Assembly: GCA_007376145.1 (NCBI GenBank)
Contig: VMFP01000001.1
Span: 122,835 to 186,834, forward strand
Source of the DNA: Parcubacteria group bacterium Gr01-1014_38
GTDB taxonomy: Bacteria > Patescibacteriota > Andersenbacteria > UBA10190 > CAIZMI01
DNA: 64,000 nucleotides
Direction: 5' to 3'
Part shown: piece after piece, positions 1,970-61,649 of the stretch
Position numbering within the stretch: the first letter of the stretch is position 1
Layout: each line of letters starts with the position of its first letter
Notes under the pieces: model-generated
What the model was told of the DNA's origin: nothing
Databases searched by the model: none
What the model saw: only the letters and a program-made list of their open reading frames with translations
Program-made: the position numbers and the translations under genes

Positions 1970-3190
1970 CTATGGCCGCACGCGCTGGCGGAGCACTTCG
2001 AATCCCTTTTCCAGGATCTCGTCCGGGTCTTCCGTGGGGTTCTCATCCTTCACTTCGATCGATGGTGCAATGCCCTGCTCATCAATCTCGCGCCCGCGTG
2101 GTGTGTGCCAGCGCGCCACCGTGACACGAACCGTCGCGCCATCCGAGAGTTTCACGAGCTCCTGCACGGAACCTTTCCCAAAGGTCCGTTCGCCGATCAC
2201 GGAGATGTCGCGTTGCTCCTGAAACGCGGCGGCAAGAATTTCCGAAGCTGAGGCCGATCCGCCGTTCACGAGGACGACGAGTGGGAGTGAAACAAGATCT
2301 CCTGGACCGTCCGTGCGGTTTTCGGTTCGCGGGAGGCCCTGTCGTGGGACTTCTTCAACGACGAGCGTTCCTCGCGGAAGGAAATGCCCGGCGACGGCCA
2401 CTCCTACGTCGAGGAGGCCGCCGGGGTTATTGCGAAGGTCGAGCACGATTCCCCGCGCCCGTGTCGCGAGCAGTTCCCGCGCGGCCTGATCCACACGGCG
2501 CGGGGTATCTTCATTGAAGGCGCTGATCATCAGGAGCGCAAGCCCATCCCGCAGCTCGAGCTTCACGCTCTCAATGGCAATGCGCTCGCGGCGAACGGTG
2601 AAATCGAGGAGTTCCTCCCCTCCTTCGCGGGCAATGGTCAGGCGCACCGTGGTCCCCGGCTTCCCGCGAATCTTGGACACGATGTCGGCGAGCGTTATCC
2701 GTTGATCGACGGACTGTCCGTCGATTTTCACAATTACGTCGCGCGCGCGAATACCCACACGTTCCGCCGGTGAGCCGCGCAGGGGCGCAATGACCGTCAC
2801 GAGGCTGCGCCGGAGACCGATCTCGATGCCGATCCCTGAGAACGCGCCATCGAGATCCTCCTCGAACTGTTTGCTTTCCTCTGGATCGGCGTAGGCGCTG
2901 TACGGATCGCCGGTACCGGCGACGATCCCCCGGAGCGCACCGCGGGCCAGACGCTCGTCCTCCAAGGGTCCCGAAAACTTGTCGTGGAGGACATCCCACA
3001 CCTCGCGCATCTGGTCCGTATCCAGCGGGGCCGGAAGCTCGCCTGGCGCCGTGAGTCGTGGACTCGAGCTGGCGGTCGTGCGGAGAGCCGGTTTCAGCGT
3101 TTGGACGTCGAGTCGCCCGACGGCCACGCCGCCGAGGAAGGCCGCGATGATGACGGTCGCCGTGGAGAAGCGCTTGATGGGCAGGTTCAT
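1970..3190 (-). CDS. S41 family C-terminal processing peptidase (Ctp/Prc-like), membrane anchored
   Basis: N-terminal hydrophobic anchor, a PDZ-like segment (GIGIEIG...[29 protein letters not shown]) and S41 catalytic motifs ([37 protein letters not shown]). Confidence 0.9.
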
Positions 3191-4575
3191 CGGGTCAGTT
3201 GCATATGGAGCTCCTGGAGCTGCTCCCGTTCTAGGGGGGATGGAGCGCCGAGGAGTACTTCTTCCCCGTTCTGGTTCTTCGGGAACGCAATCACTTCTCG
3301 AATGCTCGGCTCGCGGAGCATGACCATGAGCAGGCGATCCACCCCAGGGGCAATGCCGCCGTGTGGAGGAACACCGAATTCAAAGGCCTCTAAGAGGTGC
3401 CGGAATTGCTGCTTCGCCTTCTCCATATCAAGGCCGATAAGCCCAAAGATCTTCTCCTGGAGCGCGCGGTCGTGAATGCGGATGCTTCCGCCGCCCACCT
3501 CGACGCCGTTGCAGACGAGGTCGTACTGTGTGCTCCGCACGCGGTGCGGATCCTGGTCGAGCACGAGGATGTCCTCCGGGAGGGGAGACGTGAACATATG
3601 GTGGGAAGGAGCGTAGTGCCCCTCTTCGAGTTCCGACTCGAAGAGGGGGAAATCCATCACCCAGGCGAACGCGAGCGCTCCCGACGCTTTCTCGGTGTCG
3701 GTGCGAAGGTCCGGGCGATCCGTCCCGTACTTCTCCATCGCTTCCGTGTAGGAGAGCCGCGGAAAAGGCTGCCGCGCAATCGGCGCGCCGAGGCTGGCCA
3801 CGACCGTCGTGAAGAGGTGTTCAGTCAGGTTCAGGACATCCTCGCGGCCGACGAAACTCATCTCGAGGTCGAGTTGGGTGAACTCGGGTTGCCGGTCTCC
3901 TCGCTGATCTTCATCGCGGAAACACCGGGCGATTTGAAAATACCGGTCGAACCCGGCCACCATGAGAAGCTGCTTGTACTGCTGCGGTGACTGCGGGAGA
4001 GCGTAGAACATCCCGGGATAGAGGCGGGAGGGAACCACGTAATCACGAGCGCCTTCTGGCGTACTCTTCGTGAGGATCGGGGTCTCAATTTCCAGGAACC
4101 CCTCCGCGTGAAGAAAGGCGCGAATTTCCGTGATGAACCGATCGCGCAGCGCGAGATTCCGCTGGAGGCGAGTCCGCCGGAGATCCAGGAAGCGGTACCG
4201 GAGGCGCACGTCCTCGCCGACCGGTGTTTCCTGTGCAATCTCAAATGGCGGAGTCTTTGCGACCGCGAAGGTCTCCACGGTCGCGACGTGCACTTCAATA
4301 TCCCCCGTCGGGATTTTCGGGTTCTTGAGGCGCTCCGGACGTAGAGCGACGGTGCCACTGACGCGGATCACGTCTTCGTCGTGAAGTTCGACCGGTGGTG
4401 CTTCTGCTTTGAATACGAGTTGTGTCACGCCGTACCGGTCGCGGAGATCGACGAATCGTACGCCGCCGTGGTCACGGCGGGCATGGACCCATCCGCAGAG
4501 CGTCACCGTCTGGCCGGCGTGTTCAGCGCGGAGCGCTCCGCAGGTGTGCGTCCGGTAGGTTGTCGCGTCCGTCAT
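3187..4575 (-). CDS. aspS: aspartate--tRNA ligase, bacterial-type core but only 462 aa
   Basis: ATG 4575. OB-fold N-terminus. Class II motif 2 region reads [52 protein letters not shown], and the C-terminus has GGGSIRIH...[16 protein letters not shown]. There is a 4-nt ATGA overlap with the peptidase gene. Confidence 0.94.
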
Positions 4576-5674: not shown

Positions 5675-5749
5675 GCCCCCGTGGCGTAATGGCAGCGCAC
5701 GCGCCTTTTAAGCGCTGAGGTCCCAGTTCGAATCTGGGCGGGGGCACCA
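5675..5749 (+). tRNA. tRNA-Lys, anticodon UUU, CCA encoded
   Basis: Hand-folded cloverleaf. Acceptor GCCCCCG/CGGGGGC; D arm GCGT-AATGGCA-GCGC; anticodon stem with loop C-U-UUU-A-A; variable loop GAGGT; T arm CCCAG-TTCGAAT-CTGGG; discriminator A; then CCA. One C-U mismatch at the 27:43 position. Confidence 0.93.
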
Positions 5750-6619: not shown

Positions 6620-6994
6620 ATGAAGAAACGCGCTTTTCTGCTCTTGGTGGGCATCGCCGCAGCTTTCGTGGTGGTCGCGAGCATCGCCGCCGTGACCCTC
6701 GCACAGACGCCGCCCTACGCGGTCAAGATCCGCGTGGTGGATAAAATCGAGTCGGCGAAGATCTTCGAGGGATTTGTGCTCGAACAGACCCGAGGGAAGA
6801 CCTCGATTCTCGGGGATCAGATAAACTTCCGGGTCCTGAGCACGACCACCGCGTTTACGAAGGGAAGCAAGGGGCGGTCAACCAAAGACTGGCTCAGCGG
6901 TCTCAAGAACGAGGACGTTGTGACGGCCACCGGGTGGTATCGGTCGTCCGACAAGACATTCGAGCTGGCGAAGGTCGTCAATCGCTCACGGTAG
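6620..6994 (+). CDS. hypothetical secreted or membrane-anchored protein, 124 aa (small paralog of 5962..6597)
   Basis: The MKKRAFLLLVGIAAAFVVVASIAAV anchor resembles the preceding gene. Same strand, 22-nt gap. Confidence 0.68.
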   Translation: MKKRAFLLLVGIAAAFVVVASIAAVTLAQTPPYAVKIRVVDKIESAKIFEGFVLEQTRGKTSILGDQINFRVLSTTTAFTKGSKGRSTKDWLSGLKNEDVVTATGWYRSSDKTFELAKVVNRSR

Positions 6995-7083
6995 TCGGAG
7001 CCTCTCAAACGCGGGCGCGCCAAACCGACCGGGCAATGCCCGGCGGGGCGTTGCGCCCGTCCGGCAGGTAGGCGAGACGCCTC

Positions 7084-8178: not shown

Positions 8179-8195
8179 CGGGCTTTTGAGTTCTG

Positions 8196-8456
8196 TTACC
8201 GCTCGTACACGTCTTTGCGGTGCCCAATCGTGGCGAATAACGCGGTATCGGTTTCCGTGAAGAGGAAGAGCACGCGATAGACCTGCGTCACCCGGAAGGA
8301 GAACGTCAACGACTCCCCGTGGAGTTTCTTGACGTGGAGTCGTGGGTCACGCCAGTTCTTCCGAAAGATCCCTTCCTGCCTGCGGTACAGGACCTGAATG
8401 TCTCGTGGGAGTTTCCGGAACTGTTTAGAAAATTCGTCAGTGTAGAGAATCTTCAT
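8196..8456 (-). CDS. type II toxin, RelE/ParE superfamily (86 aa)
   Basis: [21 protein letters not shown]...[26 protein letters not shown]...[10 protein letters not shown] matches the RelE/StbE pattern (F.K.F.KLP ... KKL.G ... yRv..yRvlf ... i.hRkdvY). There is a 4-nt overlap with the upstream antitoxin. Confidence 0.86.
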
Positions 8457-8836: not shown

Positions 8837-8865
8837 TTGACACCCCAAGGACAGAATAGTAATCT
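8837..8865 (+). promoter_or_regulatory. sigma70-type promoter for 8910..9200
   Basis: TTGACA (8837..8842), a 17-nt spacer, then TAATCT (8860..8865). An SD GAGGTGAGG lies upstream of ATG 8910. Confidence 0.5.
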
Positions 8866-8909
8866 TGAGATGGCATTGGTTCCTTCTTTTAAAGAGGTGA
8901 GGTGCGCTG

Positions 8910-9200
8910 ATGTTGAATCAGGAGGGTATGTCGGAGGTTGGCTCACACATCCAGAAGGCTGTTGGTCTACGGCTCCGCATTAGGCAGCTTTCCTCTCAAG
9001 AATTTGCGGAGTTCCATGATTTGATTCGGCGCATGAGCGTTGATGACCTCTGGCAATTCGTACTTCTTGTGGAGAAGTACTCAGGTGGGCCGCCTCCCGA
9101 GAGCGAGCTCGAAGCAATGAGGACCAGGGTGTGGGAAAAGCTTCGGCAACACCTAATCCAGAGTCGGCTCGAGCGCAGCGAAGAATCAGAGACTTTGTAG
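8910..9200 (+). CDS. hypothetical protein, 96 aa, opposite strand to the heat-shock operon
   Basis: ATG with an SD, its own promoter and its own strong terminator. It is more AT-rich than its neighbours by eye. No recognisable motif, only weak HTH-like resemblance in VGLRLRIRQLSSQEFAEF. Confidence 0.5.
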   Translation: MLNQEGMSEVGSHIQKAVGLRLRIRQLSSQEFAEFHDLIRRMSVDDLWQFVLLVEKYSGGPPPESELEAMRTRVWEKLRQHLIQSRLERSEESETL

Positions 9201-9212
9201 TTCCTGCTATTC

Positions 9213-9247
9213 GTGACCCAGAAGGGATCATCTGGGTCACTTTTTCT
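9213..9247 (+). terminator. intrinsic terminator of 8910..9200, overlapping the dnaK stop codon
   Basis: GTGACCCAGA-agggatca-TCTGGGTCAC (perfect 10-bp stem) followed by TTTTTCT. The dnaK stop (9237..9239) lies inside the 3' arm. Confidence 0.78.
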
Positions 9248-40549: not shown

Positions 40550-42427
40550 TTAGTCGGGTCTTCCGTTCGTGCTGACGCGCAGTCGGGCACCGCGAGGGAC
40601 TCCGACCCAGCCAGCGTGACCACGATCCGGCGCGATACTATAGACACACTCGGTATACCCTCGCACCTTCGCCGTGACCGTCGCGTTGCTCAGGAGCATG
40701 GACAGAAGATGCAAGTAATTGTCTGGACGATCGATGCCGGACGAAATATGACAACCCATCAGGCTGAGTGTATCAATCTTGCCGCGCAGGAGTTCGCCAA
40801 ACGCCGAAGCCTCATGGAGCGGGTTCTGCCGAAGACAACGATTTTCGCCTGCTCGGTTACACAGCCTGTTGCCAGCACCGACATGCTGCGCATCGGCACT
40901 GCCATGTCCATAGATCCACACATGTAACGGGCTGCCGCGGTAGTAGTCACGCACCGTCTGGATGGCAGCGGGGATGGAGGCAACAAGCATTGTATAACTA
41001 GCAAGCCGGCGGGATCTCATAATCGCAAGATCAGTGTCGTGAGTGGCGTCCCGATACTCTGGAGGTGGGTTTTCGATCAGGATCAGCGTGGTATTGGCCG
41101 CAGTTGGGTGTACAGCCGCAACGAATTTTTCCGTCTGGCCTTGGCCTTGTCCCGCATCAGCCGGCGGGCTGGCAACATTGATGAAGAAGGTGCGCGTTTC
41201 GCCTCCCCTAAACGCGACCTGCACCCCATACACGCCTGGCCGACGAGCCAGAAAGTATACTTCAGAACAGTTCTCTGCCTCGTAACAATCACCGTCGGGA
41301 TCGTCGGGATGACGGTTCAAGCGAAAGAAGCCATCGTAGTCCCAATCCGGGTCCGTGATGGACTGTTGAGCGCGGTATGGGTCGCTCTCCCCCCGAGGAT
41401 CAGGTGCCACGATCCGCAGCTCTTCCATCCTTTGGGGATACGATTCGTAGTACCATCCCCCCTCGCCCATGAAAGCCATCGGGTGCTCGGCCAGCTCTGG
41501 CCCTTCCCAGCTCGTGTCCGCGTCAGTGTCGTATAGCGTCACCGTTCGATCATAGACGAGCCCGTTGTACGCCGGATCCTCACTGACCGTTGTGTGTCGA
41601 AGGGTGCCGGTGTGTATGAACGGCTCATTACGGAAGTCTCTGCATCCCCTGACGACGATCTCCTCACTGCCCTGCCACCAAGAGGCGTCGAAGAACAACC
41701 AGCTCTCACTCGGACAGACCTGATTGTCTGGCGATGTAATGAAAACCTCGACATTGGCGCTGGGCTGGCTGGTCAGTCCGACGTCATACACATTCCGAGG
41801 CCACCAGCTGTCAGGATCTCCTTCCTCACTGAATGACTCCGGCGCCTGGACACCGGTCGGATGGCGAGGAGTGATAACGAGGCCAGCCTCGCTAGCTCCT
41901 GTGCTGCCACTGGATGCGCTGACTGCCCCAGTGAGAGCCGTCACCGTATTATTCCAGTGGATTGCCAAGAGGAGCACAGATGCATACGTGCCTCCGCTAG
42001 AAGCTTCCAGCGCCGGTGTCGCGGCACCCCAGTGGCTACCACCGTTATCCAGGGTAGAGGCAGCGGGTGCAATGGCACGGGAGGGAGTACGAGCGACAGA
42101 AAGCCATGCTTCGCCGAAATCTCCGAAATCGCTGTTGACCGAAGGAAGCGATGGCTCATCGTCTACACTTTGAGCTGCTGGCCGGTCCTGGCTTTGCCGT
42201 GGCGGTTCCTCCGGGAAAAGTGACCACCATTTCTCATCCCGAGCCTCATCCTGCTGGTCTGCACCAGCGATACTGATTTCCATCGGCTCCTCAGTCAGCA
42301 AGCGAATCTGATCGGCTGTATGTGCTGCCCCGAAATCAGGCAGTGCAAGTGCAAGCAGATCGCCAGGTGGCAGGCGATCTTCCAGGGCTTCAACCCGGAA
42401 TACGGTACGTCTTTTGCCTTTGAGCAT
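40550..42427 (-). CDS. large secreted-type protein (625 aa) with an LEDR-type N-terminus, an adhesin-like middle and a C-terminal His/Cys domain
   Basis: ATG 42427 with a GAAAGGAG SD. N-terminus MLKGKRRTVFRVEALEDRLPPGDLL. Middle segment SQPSANVEVFITSPDNQV...WWQGSEEIVVRG...HTGTLRHTTVSEDPAYNG...VTLYDTD. C-terminus LHVWIYGHGSADAQHVG...LSLMGCHISSG. Confidence 0.75.
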   Translation of the reverse strand: MLKGKRRTVFRVEALEDRLPPGDLLALALPDFGAAHTADQIRLLTEEPMEISIAGADQQDEARDEKWWSLFPEEPPRQSQDRPAAQSVDDEPSLPSVNSDFGDFGEAWLSVARTPSRAIAPAASTLDNGGSHWGAATPALEASSGGTYASVLLLAIHWNNTVTALTGAVSASSGSTGASEAGLVITPRHPTGVQAPESFSEEGDPDSWWPRNVYDVGLTSQPSANVEVFITSPDNQVCPSESWLFFDASWWQGSEEIVVRGCRDFRNEPFIHTGTLRHTTVSEDPAYNGLVYDRTVTLYDTDADTSWEGPELAEHPMAFMGEGGWYYESYPQRMEELRIVAPDPRGESDPYRAQQSITDPDWDYDGFFRLNRHPDDPDGDCYEAENCSEVYFLARRPGVYGVQVAFRGGETRTFFINVASPPADAGQGQGQTEKFVAAVHPTAANTTLILIENPPPEYRDATHDTDLAIMRSRRLASYTMLVASIPAAIQTVRDYYRGSPLHVWIYGHGSADAQHVGAGNRLCNRAGENRCLRQNPLHEASAFGELLRGKIDTLSLMGCHISSGIDRPDNYLHLLSMLLSNATVTAKVRGYTECVYSIAPDRGHAGWVGVPRGARLRVSTNGRPD

Positions 42428-42492
42428 GCGAGTGCTCCTTTCAAAAAGAAAGAAAATTGTCTAAAGAGCTGGAAAAATACTACACGAAGCGA

Positions 42493-42521
42493 AATATAGA
42501 GAAAAAGAGGGCAACTGTCAA
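42493..42521 (-). promoter_or_regulatory. sigma70-type promoter of the 625-aa gene
   Basis: Minus strand: TTGACA (42521..42516), a 17-nt spacer, then TATATT (42498..42493). The TGA that ends the truncated PIN copy lies inside this -35 hexamer. Confidence 0.6.
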
Positions 42522-42631
42522 GCCTCCGGTCTCTCTCCCCGCATGCAGGCCCCCACAATCTTCCACGAGGCGGAGAGTTCATCATACGCGCTGCTCACCA
42601 GCACGTTCGTGTCGAGTACCACCCGGTTCAT
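42518..42631 (-). pseudogene. truncated PIN toxin paralog (37 codons)
   Basis: MNRVVLDTNVLVSSAYDELSASWKIVGACMRGERPEA-stop. The first ~31 codons match the intact PIN gene at 39617, then homology ends abruptly at 42538. A 34-codon antitoxin-like ORF (42628..42732) overlaps its ATG by ATGA. Confidence 0.72.
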
Positions 42632-42635
42632 GCCA
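42538..42635. repeat. second copy of the 98-nt PIN 5' segment
   Basis: See 39524..39621. Confidence 0.9.
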
Positions 42636-42791
42636 CCGCGAACTCCTCTTCAACAAGTACGCCTTCGCGAACTACCACTGGTTTGTCGGCGCACTCCTTG
42701 CCTTCGGTGCCGCGGTGGGAATGGCGGAGCATGCCGCCGGGTCGGCCAGCTCCGCTCCGGCAGCCTCGTCTCTCGCGACATCACATCAAGG

Positions 42792-56825: not shown

Positions 56826-58919
56826 TTACTCCATCACTGGTCGGAGTCCAAGGAGCCCGCGAGAGCGATGCGTGGTAAGGAGGTCGCGCGGAGAGACCGT
56901 TCGGTTTCCAACGCCAAAGTGAGGAGCCGATTTCTCCTGCGGGGCAGCGCGGAGTGTTGGCGCCTCACCAGGGCTCGTTCCTTCGGTGGTGAGCAGCGTG
57001 ATGAATGTTCCCGGCTCTTGAACCAGCAGCGGCTCAAGAGAGAAACGCACCCACTGGTTATCGTCTTCGCCGCGGATCGGGAGACGATTTGCGCGGACAT
57101 CGGGTCCCTCCACGGTCTGGCGGAGACGGAGGACGAACGTTCCCATATCCGCGCGTCCGGAATAGGTTGCGACGAGTGTCTCCACGCCACGGAGCGTTCC
57201 GGCGGAGACGGGAAGCTCCGCCACCACCACTGATTCCTGCGTTAGCTCGCCGAGAATACCCGTATAGGCCGGCTGGTGGTATACCCATGCGTAGGGCAGC
57301 CCGTTCACCGTCGCGGTGAAGACGGGCGTCCGTCGGCGGTAGTATTCGTCGATGAAATCGTTCGCGGGGTGATCGGGAGACCGGCCAAACATGTTGCGGT
57401 AGAGCACGACGTATCCAACCCGGAGTTGATCTCGGGCACTCAAATGAAAGACTGGCCGGTGGACGAGCGCCTTGAGCTCTTCTGGGTACCAGGAGGCCAC
57501 GGCGATCTTCCCGCCGTCATCGAGTTGATTGAGGTACCGCGCAACCTGATCGAGTCCCTCCCCCCAGCCGAGCTCCTGACTGAAGCTTGGTGGAAACAAG
57601 CGGTTATAGTACGCGAGCGCATACGGGCCAAGGAAGAGAAGTTCTCCCGCCAGCGGCAGGACGGCAAGGAGGAACACCGTTTTTGCCGCTCGGGCTTCCG
57701 TCCACTGCGGACGAACACGGCTGACGAGCGCCGCCAGCCCGATCACGCCGAGGAGGTTCACCACGGGGAACACGGGAAGCAGATAGCGGTCGCCCTTCTT
57801 GGCCCCAAACGTCATGGCCGCGGTGAAGAGCACGACGAACGCGAGAAGGATCCAAAGCGTACGGCGGGATGTCCCGCTCAGCGTCGCGAGCTTTGGCATG
57901 CTTACCGGCAGAAGCAGGAGAAGGGCGGCCAACCCGATCAGTGAAGGGATGGTCGTGCGTGCGAGCAGCGTGCTGGGGTAATGCCAGGGCTTAATGCTGT
58001 ACGCATCGGCCATGTGGTGCGGGGTAGAGAAAGCCGCCGAAAGGTCACGCTGAACAATTTTGACGTTTCCCACCGGATCCGGTACCCAGAGCAATCCCGG
58101 CCACAAGACCAGGGTCGTCGCCACGATGATCACCAGCCACTGCCCGAGAAGGCGAAGGCGGACTCGCCCCTCTTCCCTCCCCCAGGCCTGCCGATCCGCA
58201 AACAGGCTGAGTGTTGCCATGGGCAGCAGAATCAACCCAGGGATCTTCGAAAGGATCGCGAGTGCGCCAAAGATTCCCGACCAGACGAGCGCGGCGGAGG
58301 GCACGGTGTGCGGATGTTCCTCTCTCCCCTGCATTGCGGCGAGAAAGAGGATGAGCGAGAGTGCGGTAAAGCCCGCGAGGAGCGCGTCGACATGCACCAC
58401 CTTGCTGTAGCCGATCAGGAACGGATCGAGCGCGATCACGAGTGCCGCTGCACGTGCCACCCAAGGTCTCGTCAGGCGCCGCAGAGCAAGGAACAGCGCG
58501 GCGACCAGTACGCTGTTGAGGAGCGCGAACGTCACCTGGGTCCCCTGGATGAAGAGTTGGAGCGACTCTGCGGTGAACGGGATATTTTTTAGGCGTGCAA
58601 TGATCCGCACGCTGATTCCCACCAGCCACAGGGTGGGAATGCCCGGATGCGTCGTCTGCAAGGTCTCATTGAAGTGAAACTCCTGGACCGCTTGGAGGAA
58701 ATTCACGCCTCGCCCCATCCAGCTTTTCTCGTCTGCGGTCAGGAACAGGCCAATACCGATGAGGCGTGGCGCCAGGGCAATGAGGAAGAGTACCCCGGTC
58801 TCACCAAGGAGTTTCCGACGTTCTGGAGACTGCAGCCATCGCCGCATTCGCACCGAGTGTACCACCGGTGAGGCCTCCCTGCCCTTTGAGGCGCGGGACA
58901 TCCTGCATGGCTCTACCAC
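56826..58919 (-). CDS. GT39 (ArnT/PMT-type) membrane glycosyltransferase, paralog a
   Basis: FLTADEKSWMGRGVNFLQAV...TTHPGIPTLWLVG plus many TM helices, with a C-terminal ~95-aa module shared with paralogs b and c. The start is uncertain: GTG 58919 (ORF maximum), ATG 58901 (9 nt after a weak -10) or ATG 58847. Confidence 0.85.
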   Translation of the reverse strand: MVEPCRMSRASKGREASPVVHSVRMRRWLQSPERRKLLGETGVLFLIALAPRLIGIGLFLTADEKSWMGRGVNFLQAVQEFHFNETLQTTHPGIPTLWLVGISVRIIARLKNIPFTAESLQLFIQGTQVTFALLNSVLVAALFLALRRLTRPWVARAAALVIALDPFLIGYSKVVHVDALLAGFTALSLILFLAAMQGREEHPHTVPSAALVWSGIFGALAILSKIPGLILLPMATLSLFADRQAWGREEGRVRLRLLGQWLVIIVATTLVLWPGLLWVPDPVGNVKIVQRDLSAAFSTPHHMADAYSIKPWHYPSTLLARTTIPSLIGLAALLLLLPVSMPKLATLSGTSRRTLWILLAFVVLFTAAMTFGAKKGDRYLLPVFPVVNLLGVIGLAALVSRVRPQWTEARAAKTVFLLAVLPLAGELLFLGPYALAYYNRLFPPSFSQELGWGEGLDQVARYLNQLDDGGKIAVASWYPEELKALVHRPVFHLSARDQLRVGYVVLYRNMFGRSPDHPANDFIDEYYRRRTPVFTATVNGLPYAWVYHQPAYTGILGELTQESVVVAELPVSAGTLRGVETLVATYSGRADMGTFVLRLRQTVEGPDVRANRLPIRGEDDNQWVRFSLEPLLVQEPGTFITLLTTEGTSPGEAPTLRAAPQEKSAPHFGVGNRTVSPRDLLTTHRSRGLLGLRPVME

Positions 58920-58942
58920 GCGAAAGACCGATTGTCAAACTC

Positions 58943-58971
58943 TTGACACGCGCTACGGACGGTACCATACT
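58943..58971 (+). promoter_or_regulatory. sigma70-type promoter firing into an ORF-poor 0.7-kb spacer
   Basis: TTGACA (58943..58948), a 17-nt spacer, then CATACT (58966..58971). This is the same -10 hexamer as the hrcA promoter. The -35 is part of the palindrome TTGTCAAactcTTGACA, which gives a back-to-back minus-strand TTGACA (58938..58933). Confidence 0.55.
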
Positions 58972-59327
58972 CGCTTCCACTGGTGTTCTTTGTCATAAAG
59001 TCGTGCCGGTCAGACGGTGACGAAACTCCGAGGAGACGCGCAAGCGTCAAGAGAGTCCCGGAGGTGACCGTTCAAGCCGGTCGAATGCGCGCAGAAGGGT
59101 AGGAATAACATTTCACCTTCCAGGTGTTGCCCTCGTCGCACACAGCAGGACTCGATGAGGGAAATTCCCCACGCCTGAAGGAGGTAGGTGGAACAGTCCA
59201 AACTGCGTACACGCTTGTCTCTTCCGGCCGGAAACGACAAGCGGCGCTACGCGGGGGAGTAGCCGTCGAACGGAGAATACTGCGTGTATGCAGGAAGTTC
59301 AGTCTCAAAAGGGCTCGCGGACTCTCG

Positions 59328-59391
59328 TGGCATATTCGTGAACCTCATGAATATGTCTAGTGGCATATTCATATAAACCTCATGAATATGA
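59328..59391. repeat. two tandem 29/31-nt units, each with an internal 7-nt inverted repeat (operator-like)
   Basis: gtggCATATTCgtgaacctcatGAATATG (59328..59356), then tcta, then gtggCATATTCatataaacctcatGAATATG (59361..59391). Confidence 0.8.
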
Positions 59392-59527
59392 CGCGGAAGG
59401 AGTACTGCCCTGGACGGACTTCTTGATATACCGCATGAAGGGAATATTCCCCTCGACGCTTGCGAAGAGAGGAGGAACCTGCCCCTTCTAAGACTAAACC
59501 TATTCTTCTGCGCGATTTGTCCTCTTT

Positions 59528-59561
59528 CATTGTCGTTCCCAGGCACCATTGTCGTTCCCAG
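59528..59561. repeat. direct repeat cattgtcgttcccag x2 (19-nt period)
   Basis: 59528..59542 and 59547..59561 are identical. Confidence 0.8.
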
Positions 59562-59567
59562 ACATCA

Positions 59568-59616
59568 GGGCATTTGCTCTCTTTATGTCCGTCTGGCCGG
59601 GGCATTTGCTCTCTTT
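59568..59616. repeat. direct repeat gggcatttgctctcttt x2 (32-nt period)
   Basis: 59568..59584 and 59600..59616 are identical. Confidence 0.8.
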
Positions 59617-59630
59617 TGTCTGGGAGCACC

Positions 59631-59668
59631 CCCGCTCGTCCCCATCGGCGAGCGGGATTTTTCTTATT
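59631..59668 (+). terminator. plus-strand intrinsic terminator overlapping the stop codon of GT39 paralog b
   Basis: CCCGCTCG-tccccatcgg-CGAGCGGG followed by ATTTTTCTTATT. On the minus strand the hairpin is not followed by a U-tract. Confidence 0.7.
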
Positions 59669-61649
59669 CCGAGTGCGAGGCGTCTCCTTGGTAGACGAGC
59701 GCGTATGCGAGATCCCCTTCTGCGAGAGACGCCGCCCGCTTCTCTCCCGACCGGAGCGGTCGTCGGAGCACCACCAGGCGTCCCGGGAGGATGTCGTTCG
59801 GTTGATACCGAACGGTGACGGCATTGCCGGGCTCCCCGGAGGGCGAAGTGAGCGCAACGTAGTAGGTCACCCCCTTAGAGTTCGGGAGCGGTTCAAAGCG
59901 AATTTCTTTCCAGGCGTTGTCCTCCAAACGGCTCACGCCTATCCGGACCGTGCGCAGATCGGCACCGTCGGGATTCTCGCGGACGTGGAGGAGAAGCTCC
60001 CCCCGATTGCTCCGAGACGAGAACGTCGCAAAGACCAGCCGTACGCCGCTCAATCCATCCGATTCCGCGACGACTGTTTGGCCGACCTCGACCGTTGTCG
60101 GGGCATTCCCGGTACCGCGCTCCGGCGCGCCGGCACGGACAATTTCTCCTACGTGCTTTGGAAAGCGATCCACAGAATCTCGCGCGTAGATCCAGGCCAT
60201 CTCGAGACCGACAACGCGGATTACCGCTACCGGTTCCACGTTTGCAAATTCCTCGAGGACCCTCGTCGGACCGGAATCCGCCGGTCGCCCCCGCATATTT
60301 CGATAGGTCACCACGTAATCCACGCGCGCATCATCGCGGCTGCTTAAGCTCATGGTTGTCCCGCGGAAAAACTCCCGGAAGATGATGGGATACCAGGTCG
60401 CCACCTGGAGTTCTGGAGCAAGGGGATGGGCATTGAGTACTGCCGCAGCCCGCTCGAGTCCTTCGCCCCACCCCGCTTGGGTGGGCTCTTCCTTCGGACT
60501 GAAGGGACTGACGTACGCCAGGGCATAGGGACTGAGCTGAAGGTTGAGAACGGCAAGAACGCAGATGGTGCCGGCGGCGAGAAGTTTTCCGAAGCGATCT
60601 CGGCGGATGAGTTCACCGAGGCTGACCCCCGCGAAGACATCGAGCACGAGAAGTGCCGGAAGAAGGTAGCGATCGGCGCGCTTCTCTACGAGATTCACGA
60701 AGAGGAAAAACCCTCCGAAGAAGAGGAGGAATACCAATGCCTCCCGGCGCCGGTGGGCAGCGCGAAGACATGCGAGCGCTCCCAGTGCGGCGAACAGGAG
60801 AGTGACCGGCGTCGTGCGGGCAAGAAGCGCACGGGCGTAGAAGAGATTGTCGCGCGTCCGGACTTCCGCCGATTCACCGAAGTGTGACAGCGTAACGACG
60901 GACTGGACGTCGCGAGCAGCGTATCGGACATTCGGGAGAACGTTCAGCCACATGGAGGGCCACAGAATCAGGAAGGTCGCGGTGGTAACACCGACCCAGG
61001 TCGCCGTATCGCGAATCCATCGAGCCCGCATGTCTGGAACGAGCAGAAACACCCCGGCGGCGAAGGGGACGAGGAAGACCGCCGGGAGTTTCGTGAGCAG
61101 CGCGAGCCCCCCGAGAAATCCGGAAAGAACAAGAATCCGGCGTGCGCCTTGGCGGACGTACCAGAGGGCGGTAAGGACCGAGAGGAGCATGAGAATCGCG
61201 AGGAGGGCATCCACATGCGCGAGCTGGGAATACCCAACGAAAAACGGATTCAGGGTAAGGAGCACGCCAGCACCAAGACCACTGCGGACACCCCAGAGTC
61301 GTGCCACGAGGGCAGCAGCCATCCCGGTCCCAAGGGATACCGCGATGGCGATAGGAAGCTTCCCCGCGGAACGGAAGGAGCCGACGGTCGGGCTTTCCAT
61401 GCGCTCTCCCGTCAGCCATTCTCGCGCTTCAATGCCCGCACCGATGAGAAGCATCGCGGTGACGCCGGGATGGGTTCCCTGGAAGGTGCCGCCGGGATCC
61501 CCACGGCGGAGCGCAGTCGTGAACGACTGCGCGCGGAACATCCACTGCGGTTCGTCCGCGGTGAGGATCGCGCCGAGACCCTGCAGTCGAACGAGCAGCG
61601 CGAGCGTCGCCGTGATAAGTCCTACCATGACGAGCGGACGGAATGCCAT
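59664..61649 (-). CDS. GT39 (ArnT/PMT-type) membrane glycosyltransferase, paralog b
   Basis: ATG 61649. LTADEPQWMFRAQSFTTAL...GTHPGVTAMLLIG plus many TM helices, with the C-terminal shared module at 59808..60083. Confidence 0.88.
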   Translation of the reverse strand: MAFRPLVMVGLITATLALLVRLQGLGAILTADEPQWMFRAQSFTTALRRGDPGGTFQGTHPGVTAMLLIGAGIEAREWLTGERMESPTVGSFRSAGKLPIAIAVSLGTGMAAALVARLWGVRSGLGAGVLLTLNPFFVGYSQLAHVDALLAILMLLSVLTALWYVRQGARRILVLSGFLGGLALLTKLPAVFLVPFAAGVFLLVPDMRARWIRDTATWVGVTTATFLILWPSMWLNVLPNVRYAARDVQSVVTLSHFGESAEVRTRDNLFYARALLARTTPVTLLFAALGALACLRAAHRRREALVFLLFFGGFFLFVNLVEKRADRYLLPALLVLDVFAGVSLGELIRRDRFGKLLAAGTICVLAVLNLQLSPYALAYVSPFSPKEEPTQAGWGEGLERAAAVLNAHPLAPELQVATWYPIIFREFFRGTTMSLSSRDDARVDYVVTYRNMRGRPADSGPTRVLEEFANVEPVAVIRVVGLEMAWIYARDSVDRFPKHVGEIVRAGAPERGTGNAPTTVEVGQTVVAESDGLSGVRLVFATFSSRSNRGELLLHVRENPDGADLRTVRIGVSRLEDNAWKEIRFEPLPNSKGVTYYVALTSPSGEPGNAVTVRYQPNDILPGRLVVLRRPLRSGEKRAASLAEGDLAYALVYQGDASHSE

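Follow-up and report, generated by a model that had tools for sequence, protein, structure and literature searches.

What occupies the largest non-coding gap of a densely coding bacterial locus, and why does a strong-looking promoter inside it point away from every annotated gene? The locus lies in a 64,000-nt stretch of the genome of Parcubacteria group bacterium Gr01-1014_38 (contig VMFP01000001.1, positions 122,835 to 186,834; hereafter the window), of which 94% is coding according to a crude map of open reading frames (ORFs). The gap, 58920..59663 (744 nt), separates two minus-strand genes of the GT39/PMT_2 glycosyltransferase family and is the window's largest stretch without a long ORF; the next-largest non-coding gaps measure 509 nt (containing a tRNA), 388 nt and 364 nt. 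Its GC content is 0.50-0.57, compared with 0.60-0.67 in the flanks. The original prediction, made from the letters of the sequence, had described the gap as exceptional and AT-richer than its surroundings, which is correct, and had offered three explanations for it: a long structured non-coding RNA (ncRNA), a regulatory DNA hub, or a relic of a mobile element or replicon. The analysis shows that the plus strand of the gap carries a non-coding unit that is conserved, has boundaries of its own and evolves under structural constraint. This unit, 58978..59668 (+), is probably an independent gene for a structured ncRNA of ~690 nt belonging to a new, uncatalogued family.

The unit is delimited by signals of its own. 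The putative RNA-gene promoter (58943..58971, plus strand) consists of a -35 element TTGACA (58943..58948), a 17-nt spacer and a -10 element CATACT (58966..58971); it matches 10 of 12 positions and is the sole such site in 1.5 kb, where 0.3 would be expected. Transcription is predicted to start near 58978, and an RNA gene explains why this plus-strand promoter points away from the annotated genes. At the other end lies an intrinsic terminator (59631..59668, plus strand), in which CCCGCUCGUC..GGCGAGCGGG is followed by a U-rich tail. Its 10-bp stem (59631..59656) contains eight GC pairs and precedes ATTTTTCTTATT on the plus strand; it is the best terminator of the region, and the stem has no second copy in the window. 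Both the promoter and the terminator had been called at these positions in the original prediction, and both calls stand.

For folding, the unit was taken as 58978..59668 (691 nt). Its minimum free energy is -291.7 kcal/mol on the plus strand (z = -7.0) and -258.9 kcal/mol on the minus strand (z = -5.4). As a control, 180 non-overlapping 691-nt tiles of the window were folded on both strands and their minimum free energies were regressed on GC content. The plus strand of the unit falls 61 kcal/mol below the GC expectation (-4.5 standard deviations), with the most extreme of the other tiles at -30 kcal/mol; in the same comparison, the minus strand of the unit lies at -2.1 standard deviations.

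Related loci were collected by protein similarity. A scan of a genome collection with the GT39 protein returned L002 only, and a protein search combined with exact-sequence look-ups added L003, L004, L005, L006, L010 and L011, the last being identical to L002. A second protein search yielded no relative above 76% identity, and scanning JGI metagenomes with the flanking protein gave nothing. The same two GT39 genes are present in L002, L003, L004, L005, L006 and L010, with 531-1144 nt between them. This interval holds one unit in the window, L002, L003, L006 and L010 and two tandem units in L004 and L005 (u1 and u2 below), giving nine distinct units of ~370-690 nt. Each of these, read on the strand that corresponds to the plus strand of the window, has a promoter and a terminator of its own. 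Neither the position nor the orientation of the unit varies among the seven contigs that carry it, whose flanking proteins are only 64-76% identical. The carriers are uncultured groundwater bacteria labelled Parcubacteria or Saccharibacteria, and more distant homologues of the flanking protein are named Candidatus Andersenbacteria. Two of the related contigs, L011 and L012, originate from the Hainich groundwater wells. Thus the check for conservation and covariation in other genomes, which had been proposed together with the original prediction, turned out positive, with units at the same site and compensatory changes among them.

The order of parts is common to the units: palindromic promoter, a pyrimidine-rich motif (Y1), a hairpin domain (Pa), a long-range helix (Pb) enclosing a variable core, an A-rich junction, a second pyrimidine-rich motif (Y2), a penultimate hairpin (Pd) and the terminator. 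Sequence similarity between units is low: the only links that nhmmer makes are those of L004 to L005 and of L002 to L005u1. Pb is formed in 9/9 units over 12-16 bp, with an outer end (C)GCAG/CUGC(G) and an inner end GGG/CCC. When units are folded singly, its probability is 0.91-1.00, apart from 0.54 in L002, where the helix has a bulge. The middle of Pb differs among units, both strands changing in step: GCAG-CAAGCGGG/CCCGCTTG-CTGC and GCAG-TGAGTGGG/CCCACTCA-CTGC are found next to GCAG-AAGGGTAGG/CCTATTCTT-CTGC, the variant of the window, and to TAGGTGGG/CCCACCAA (one mismatch) and CAAGCAGGGA/TCCCTGCTTG. This family-wide comparison was made in a hand register, as MAFFT did not place the unequal-length strands of Pb and Pd in common columns. 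In the window, where Pb is the clearest of the nested long-range pairings in the fold, the 5' strand CGCGCAGAAGGGUAGG (59088..59103, plus strand) pairs with the 3' strand CCUAUUCUUCUGCGCG (59499..59514, plus strand) in a 16-bp helix with a pair probability of 0.99; it includes two G-U pairs, which are C-A mismatches on the opposite strand.

Alignable pairs of units allowed substitutions to be counted. L004u2 and L005u2, which are 73% identical, share 127 consensus pairs with 100% of cells paired and none broken; 11 compensatory and 20 one-sided wobble changes separate them, none of the shuffles reach any of these measures (0/500), and slid controls pair 35-48%. Among L004u1, L005u1 and L002, 22 pairs are doubly changed, compared with 9.3 +/- 2.2 in shuffles (0/500) and 2-8 in slid controls. 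A control for circularity was made by predicting the structure from one sequence and scoring the substitutions of the other. Of the stem substitutions, 24-28 are compatible with pairing on the RNA strand and 19-36 disrupt it (40-58% kept); for the opposite strand the counts are 10-18 compatible and 29-41 disruptive (24-38% kept). The difference between strands consists mostly of one-sided, G-U-compatible changes (19-20 vs 3-10). The result obtained with single-sequence structures therefore supports both selection on structure and the assignment to the plus strand.

The same alignments bear on the possibility that the gap houses one or more unannotated small-protein genes. Mechanical ORFs of 30-100 amino acids (aa) do occur on both strands, and a gene caller predicted ORFs of 162 and 77 aa in the L005 gap. 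The L004 versus L005 mismatches nevertheless show no preference for any codon position (41/44/41 and 33/34/43), 1- and 2-nt indels between the two are frequent, and the units of the relatives have no ORF in common, whether judged by position or by sequence. Nor does any ORF of the window's gap, including the 78-aa ORF 59124..59360, have a Pfam match, in agreement with the earlier statement that no credible ORF is present there. With no coding signature, small proteins are an extremely unlikely content of the gap. As to the L005 calls (2796..3284 on the plus strand and 3601..3834 on the minus strand), they look spurious because codon periodicity is absent and 1-2-nt indels separate them from L004, and they are probably false; the locus thus serves as a warning of ORFs invented by gene callers.

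Whether the window's own unit belongs to the family had to be decided by other means than sequence similarity. Single-sequence nhmmer searches and leave-one-out hidden Markov models gave E >= 0.02, the best value (E = 0.024) falling on the terminator. For a leave-one-out covariance model, the 3' domains of the other eight units were used, and the terminator helix was the only one annotated. Run over both strands of the window, this model gave two matches only, both on the plus strand within the candidate: one of 26.2 bits at 59564..59668 (E = 4.9e-6) and one of 8.7 bits at 59487..59557 (E = 0.23). In the weaker one, the junction, the Pb 3' strand, Y2 and the motif CCCAGGC are aligned as in the hand alignment, and the match is split at a 19-nt tandem duplication of the window's unit. 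Membership in the family is well supported and rests on synteny, architecture, the palindrome, the terminator stem and this covariance-model match. The long structured ncRNA, one of the three explanations first put forward, is accordingly the one favoured by the fold excess, the architecture and compensatory changes in relatives, the lack of a coding signature and the leave-one-out model. A wider search with a degenerate pattern (junction, Pb 3' strand and terminator) produced 14 metagenome matches and one in IMG/VR; all 15 lack the terminator, the Pb partner and the promoter and were discarded as chance matches.

Several observations weigh against an RNA gene of a new family. Promoter, terminator and start site are all predicted, and the -10 hexamers are weak, their first T missing in most units. 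Sequence similarity of the window's unit to the others is detectable only in the palindrome, the terminator stem and short motifs. The family is small and narrow, comprising nine units on seven contigs (six distinct sequences, L011 duplicating L002) from one lineage. The covariation counts rest on two to three sequences with structures derived from the same alignments, a possible source of bias, and for the 395-nt core of the window's unit the available relatives are all too distant for covariation to be assessed. Lastly, no consistent site complementary to Y1 or Y2 was found in the translation-initiation regions of neighbouring genes in the window and five related loci; in this target scan no orthologous gene recurred, and the top matches were spurious ORFs antisense to the RNA. 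Having taken all of these points into account, we regard the structured ncRNA gene as the likely identity of the unit.

The individual parts can be placed on the plus strand of the window as follows. Y1 (GGUGUUCUUUGUCAU, 58982..58996; family consensus ~UUGUUCYYUUU..yAU) is located near the 5' end in 9/9 units. Its predicted unpaired probability averages 0.65 over the nine units and is 0.41 in the window, compared with a whole-RNA average of 0.35. The MFE (minimum free energy) helices of Pa, an extended 5' hairpin domain, span 59001..59084; an equivalent hairpin stands between Y1 and Pb in 8/9 units, L006 being the one without it. Inside Pb, the multi-branched variable core (59104..59491) measures ~395 nt here and 127-406 nt in relatives. 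It is followed by the A-rich junction GACUAAA (59492..59498; family consensus GGAYNAAA), which precedes the Pb 3' strand and was aligned by the leave-one-out model. Y2 (AUUUGUCCUCUUUCAU, 59515..59530) comes after the Pb 3' strand in 9/9 units, with a predicted unpaired probability of 0.73 in the window and a mean of 0.72 over units. The penultimate hairpin Pd (59554..59627) has the basal stem GUUCCCAGACA / UGUCUGGGAGC, and a yCCnGGr..yCCnGGr hairpin occupies its position in 9/9 units. An outer helix pairing the 5' end with 59542..59551 was considered and not adopted, as it is not conserved in relatives.

The terminator is conserved in 9/9 units as a CCCGC..GCGGG hairpin followed by a U-run. 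Its stem CCCGCUCG/CGAGCGGG is identical in 6/9 units, the loops differ (6 to ~65 nt) and the bodies of the units are unrelated; one stem position covaries across units (T-A, C-G, A-T, G-C). Such conservation of stem sequence across unrelated loops is unusual for an intrinsic terminator, and the 3' hairpin may do more than terminate transcription, for example contribute to stability or bind a protein.

The unit of the window is the longest of the nine, and it carries three sets of tandem repeats on the plus strand, which had been reported at their true positions. The first is a duplication of a 33-35-nt hairpin (GGCAUAUUC..GAAUAUG; 59323..59390) in the variable core, with a period of ~35, 2.0 copies and 85% matches; the hairpins fold at -14.3 and -7.3 kcal/mol singly and at -29.4 kcal/mol as a pair with flanks (59323..59395). 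The second, the 19-nt duplication that splits the covariance-model match (CAUUGUCGUUCCCAGRCAY x2, 59528..59565), doubles the Pd 5' strand including the family motif CCCAGGC. The third, a 17-nt duplication of GGGCAUUUGCUCUCUUU (59568..59584 and 59600..59616), lies inside the apical part of Pd. All three are far above chance and, within the window, confined to this locus; the search for further copies, which had been suggested at the outset, found none elsewhere in the window and none in the relatives. They are best read as recent, lineage-specific duplications of hairpin segments that enlarge a size-tolerant RNA, and not as operators or iterons.

This bears directly on the idea of a regulatory hub, in which the gap would be protein-binding DNA and the repeats would be operators of a dimeric regulator of the divergent GT39 operon. 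In its favour, the repeats are genuine and not random, short palindromes occur in two of them, and the palindrome at the promoter recurs in all relatives, even where a divergent gene is missing. What such a hub leaves unexplained is that no relative has any of the three repeats, that they lie 350-650 nt from the GT39 promoter and within the predicted transcript, each as part of a stable RNA hairpin, and that the gap conserves base pairing rather than sequence, a pattern that binding sites for proteins on DNA do not explain. The spacing of the palindrome half-sites, N3-N5 among units, also speaks against it. We consider the hub very unlikely as an explanation of the gap. One part of it survives, namely the conserved palindrome as a possible operator; the part resting on tandem repeats does not, these being duplicated hairpins inside the RNA that relatives lack.

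The palindrome itself, TTGTCAA-ACTC-TTGACA (58932..58948, both strands), contains two back-to-back -35 elements, as had been proposed, and has no other close match in the window. One belongs to the RNA-gene promoter, the other to a predicted divergent minus-strand GT39 promoter (58910..58938) with -35 TTGACA (58938..58933), a 17-nt spacer ending in TGG and -10 TAGAGC (58915..58910). An arrangement of the form TTGACA-N17(..TGG/TGT)-TA[G/C]A[G/C]C also faces the downstream GT39 gene in L002, L003, L004, L005, L006 and L010, where it would likewise act as a promoter. Since the same minus-strand arrangement occurs in all six distinct related loci, the element appears to be a conserved bidirectional promoter. 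On the RNA side, TTGAC is invariant in 9/9 units, an nAnnnT hexamer follows 17-18 nt downstream in 8/9, and a TTGTCAA-N3-5-TTGAC inverted repeat with a half-site spacer of 3-5 nt is present at 9/9 unit promoters.

The second units of L004 and L005 are informative here: they have no divergent gene, their palindromes face only the terminator of the first unit with no plausible divergent -10, and the full left half-site is kept. Its retention where no gene diverges hints that the palindrome does not simply result from two -35 boxes that coincide; it is a possible operator for both the RNA promoter and the divergent GT39 promoter. It fits two back-to-back -35 hexamers equally well, and its variable spacer speaks against an operator. 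A class II CRP/FNR-type activator site was rejected: the classical geometry has the site centred at -41.5, and the centre of the palindrome is ~-37.5 from both predicted starts.

The tandem arrangement in L004 (6946..7982) and L005 (2729..3741), both on the minus strand, consists of two diverged paralogous units. Pb reads CTCGCAGTGAGTGGG in the first type and CGCAGCAAGCAGGGA in the second. L002 has the first type only, and the window, L003, L006 and L010 have only a second-like type, a distribution that suggests an old duplication of the unit followed by differential loss. Further out, in L007 and L008 (57-59% GT39 identity), the two GT39 genes are 40-47 nt apart (intervals 6969..7008 and 6951..6997), no RNA unit is present within 5 kb and the covariance model gives no match. 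Because these genes are near-contiguous without a unit, the unit must have been gained or lost within the lineage.

Absence from the site in more distant relatives is what one would expect of a relic of a mobile element or replicon lodged between two genes, for example a miniature inverted-repeat transposable element or an iteron-bearing origin, and the relatively AT-rich composition with direct and inverted repeats fits such a relic as well. Against it, there is one copy in the 64 kb and a single one in each related locus with its flanks, with no other match to any part; rep, transposase and integrase genes are not adjacent; the ends of the unit show neither terminal inverted repeats nor target duplications; the repeats exist in only two copies each; and syntenic position and orientation are constant in seven contigs. 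Structure-preserving evolution, moreover, indicates selection and not decay. This member of the original trio is therefore not supported, and we hold a relic to be most improbable.

The L007 and L008 arrangement, where the GT39 genes are presumably co-transcribed, is also an argument for viewing the unit as a transcriptional insulator. By this account the unit splits a glycosyltransferase operon, convergent transcription and the hairpin block read-through from the upstream GT39 gene, the back-to-back promoter restarts transcription of the downstream genes, and the RNA is a by-product. It agrees with the fact that the unit, where present, always comes with the conserved outward promoter TTGACA-N17-TGgTAGAGC facing the downstream GT39 gene. 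An insulator has no need, however, for an RNA of 400-700 nt with compensatory helices, two single-stranded motifs and a second unit, and a U-tract on the plus strand only makes a poor terminator for a minus-strand operon. Insulation thus seems quite unlikely to be what the unit is for.

For the structured ncRNA gene, the following course of events can be proposed. The RNA would be transcribed from its own sigma-70-type promoter from ~58978 to ~59660, ending at its own terminator and running opposite to the glycosyltransferase genes, and it would then act in trans; of the possible roles, that of a regulator or scaffold seems the best guess. Y1 and Y2 may contact purine-rich RNA or a protein, and they are the likely contact sites because they are the only conserved single-stranded sequence elements. 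The insertion-tolerant folded core might serve as a scaffold, and through the palindrome a single dimeric regulator may govern both the RNA and the divergent GT39 promoter. Each of these modes of action is tentative and should be regarded as doubtful. An anti-Shine-Dalgarno role of the Y motifs was rejected, since CCUCC-like strings occur in two to three units and the order of pyrimidine run and CAU is wrong.

If the assignment is right, the family offers an RNA that is delimited well enough to be tested: its promoter and terminator, its helices and two motifs of possible function are all placed. In very small genomes a non-coding gene of 0.4-0.7 kb, sometimes duplicated, is costly, and it therefore probably matters to the cell. 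Given its place in a cluster for cell-envelope or protein glycosylation, it may also reveal how the cell surface is regulated.

The neighbourhood agrees with the 'glycosylation block' of the original prediction. It contains GT2 and GT4 glycosyltransferases, sugar epimerases, the two GT39 paralogues, a PEGA-domain protein and SecA, together with large proteins that have no Pfam match. The upstream of the two GT39 genes (59664..61649, minus strand) has its stop codon abutting the gap, and the start of the other (56826..58919, minus strand) faces it. For this downstream gene, the long-ORF start GTG 58919 is upstream of its own predicted -10 (58915..58910); a GGGAGG sequence lies 9 nt upstream of GTG 58865, the site of the MVHSV N-terminus conserved in relatives; and the public gene call begins at ATG 58847 (673 aa). 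Of these, 58865 is probably the true start. As the conserved MVHSV start maps to this GTG, the real extent of the gap is probably 58866..59663 (~0.8 kb).

Some features lie further away. A gene for an integrase-type transposase (HTH_28/HTH_32/rve_3, 352 aa; L001 2455..3513) is found ~4 kb past the right end of the window. Since it stands inside the cluster on the source contig, the glycosylation cluster has received mobile DNA, though not at the RNA locus. Within the window, the 364-nt gap 42428..42791 (minus strand) has the best sigma-70-like promoter in 40-60 kb (TTGACA-17-TATATT, 42521..42493, 11/12 matches), and a minus-strand tile from 42152 that overlaps this gap has the second most negative GC-corrected folding energy (-27.6 kcal/mol); the gap may contain a structured leader or small RNA upstream of a 625-aa gene (40550..42427). 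Two more non-coding gaps, 8849..9236 (388 nt) and 8179..8452 (274 nt), flank a 131-aa ORF, and Rfam has nothing there.

Known RNA families do not cover the unit. At gathering thresholds, Rfam 15 reports a single tRNA (5675..5746) in the whole window, so that the Rfam check advised with the original prediction returned no family in the gap. At E <= 10 there are three chance-level matches of 13-17 bits in 58700..59900 and, in the six related loci, none within units except a terminator-only match. OLE, ROOL, GOLLD, HEARO, raiA, 6S, RNase P, tmRNA, SRP, CsrB and group I/II introns all fall below the Rfam 15 gathering thresholds and were rejected. A literature search found no description of a large ncRNA from bacteria of the candidate phyla radiation, which is absence of evidence only. 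The family is uncatalogued; as a large structured RNA it is a kind of element already known and not a new category.

Several systems that resemble parts of the locus were compared and set aside. The short direct repeats in an AT-richer intergenic region recall plasmid iterons or operator arrays; here, in contrast, each repeat has two copies, there is no rep gene, and the repeats are not conserved and lie inside a structured RNA. A ToxI-like type III toxin-antitoxin RNA was rejected: where an array of ~36-nt tandem repeats would be expected there are only two near-identical copies, and no small toxin gene is adjacent. A TIGR array, as described in PMC12045711, was rejected as well, with two repeat copies only and no adjacent Tas-like gene. 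The window's copy is, like CsrB/RsmZ, a long multi-hairpin ncRNA, and it contains 21 GGA compared with 11.4 expected. A sponge of the CsrB/RsmZ type was nonetheless rejected: the GGA excess is limited to the window's copy, and the other eight units are at expectation.

In gene organisation the units are close to PrrF1/PrrF2, OmrA/OmrB and AbcR1/AbcR2, tandemly duplicated trans-acting small RNAs of ~80-150 nt. As in these, each paralogue has a promoter with a shared palindromic element and a Rho-independent terminator, a conserved single-stranded motif is located at the 5' end, where the seeds of many small RNAs lie, and tandem copies exist in some genomes (L004 and L005). The units differ in their size of 370-690 nt with a large closed core, and in that no target complementarity was found among the genes of the window and the related loci.

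Also among the closest in kind are OLE (RF01071), ROOL, GOLLD and raiA, with which the unit shares a stand-alone ncRNA of several hundred nucleotides and a multi-branched, covariation-supported structure. Oligomers have been seen for ROOL, GOLLD and OLE. Many nucleotides are invariant in these classes, which are widely distributed; the family described here has poor sequence conservation and a two-fold size range and is found in one narrow lineage. OLE is co-transcribed with genes for its partner proteins, whereas this RNA has its own promoter and is antisense to its neighbours. Like OLE, this RNA sits among genes for integral membrane proteins, and OLE is reported to form a membrane-associated ribonucleoprotein (PMC12265935, PMC9723947). 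By analogy, the units could be a lineage-restricted class of large RNA tied to envelope glycosylation, acting as an RNA partner or regulator of membrane GT39 proteins with the pyrimidine motifs as contacts, a reading that we put forward as speculative and, on balance, unlikely. To our knowledge, there are few bacterial ncRNAs that exceed ~300 nt, are conserved in structure and lack an assigned function. OLE, GOLLD, ROOL and raiA each opened new biology.

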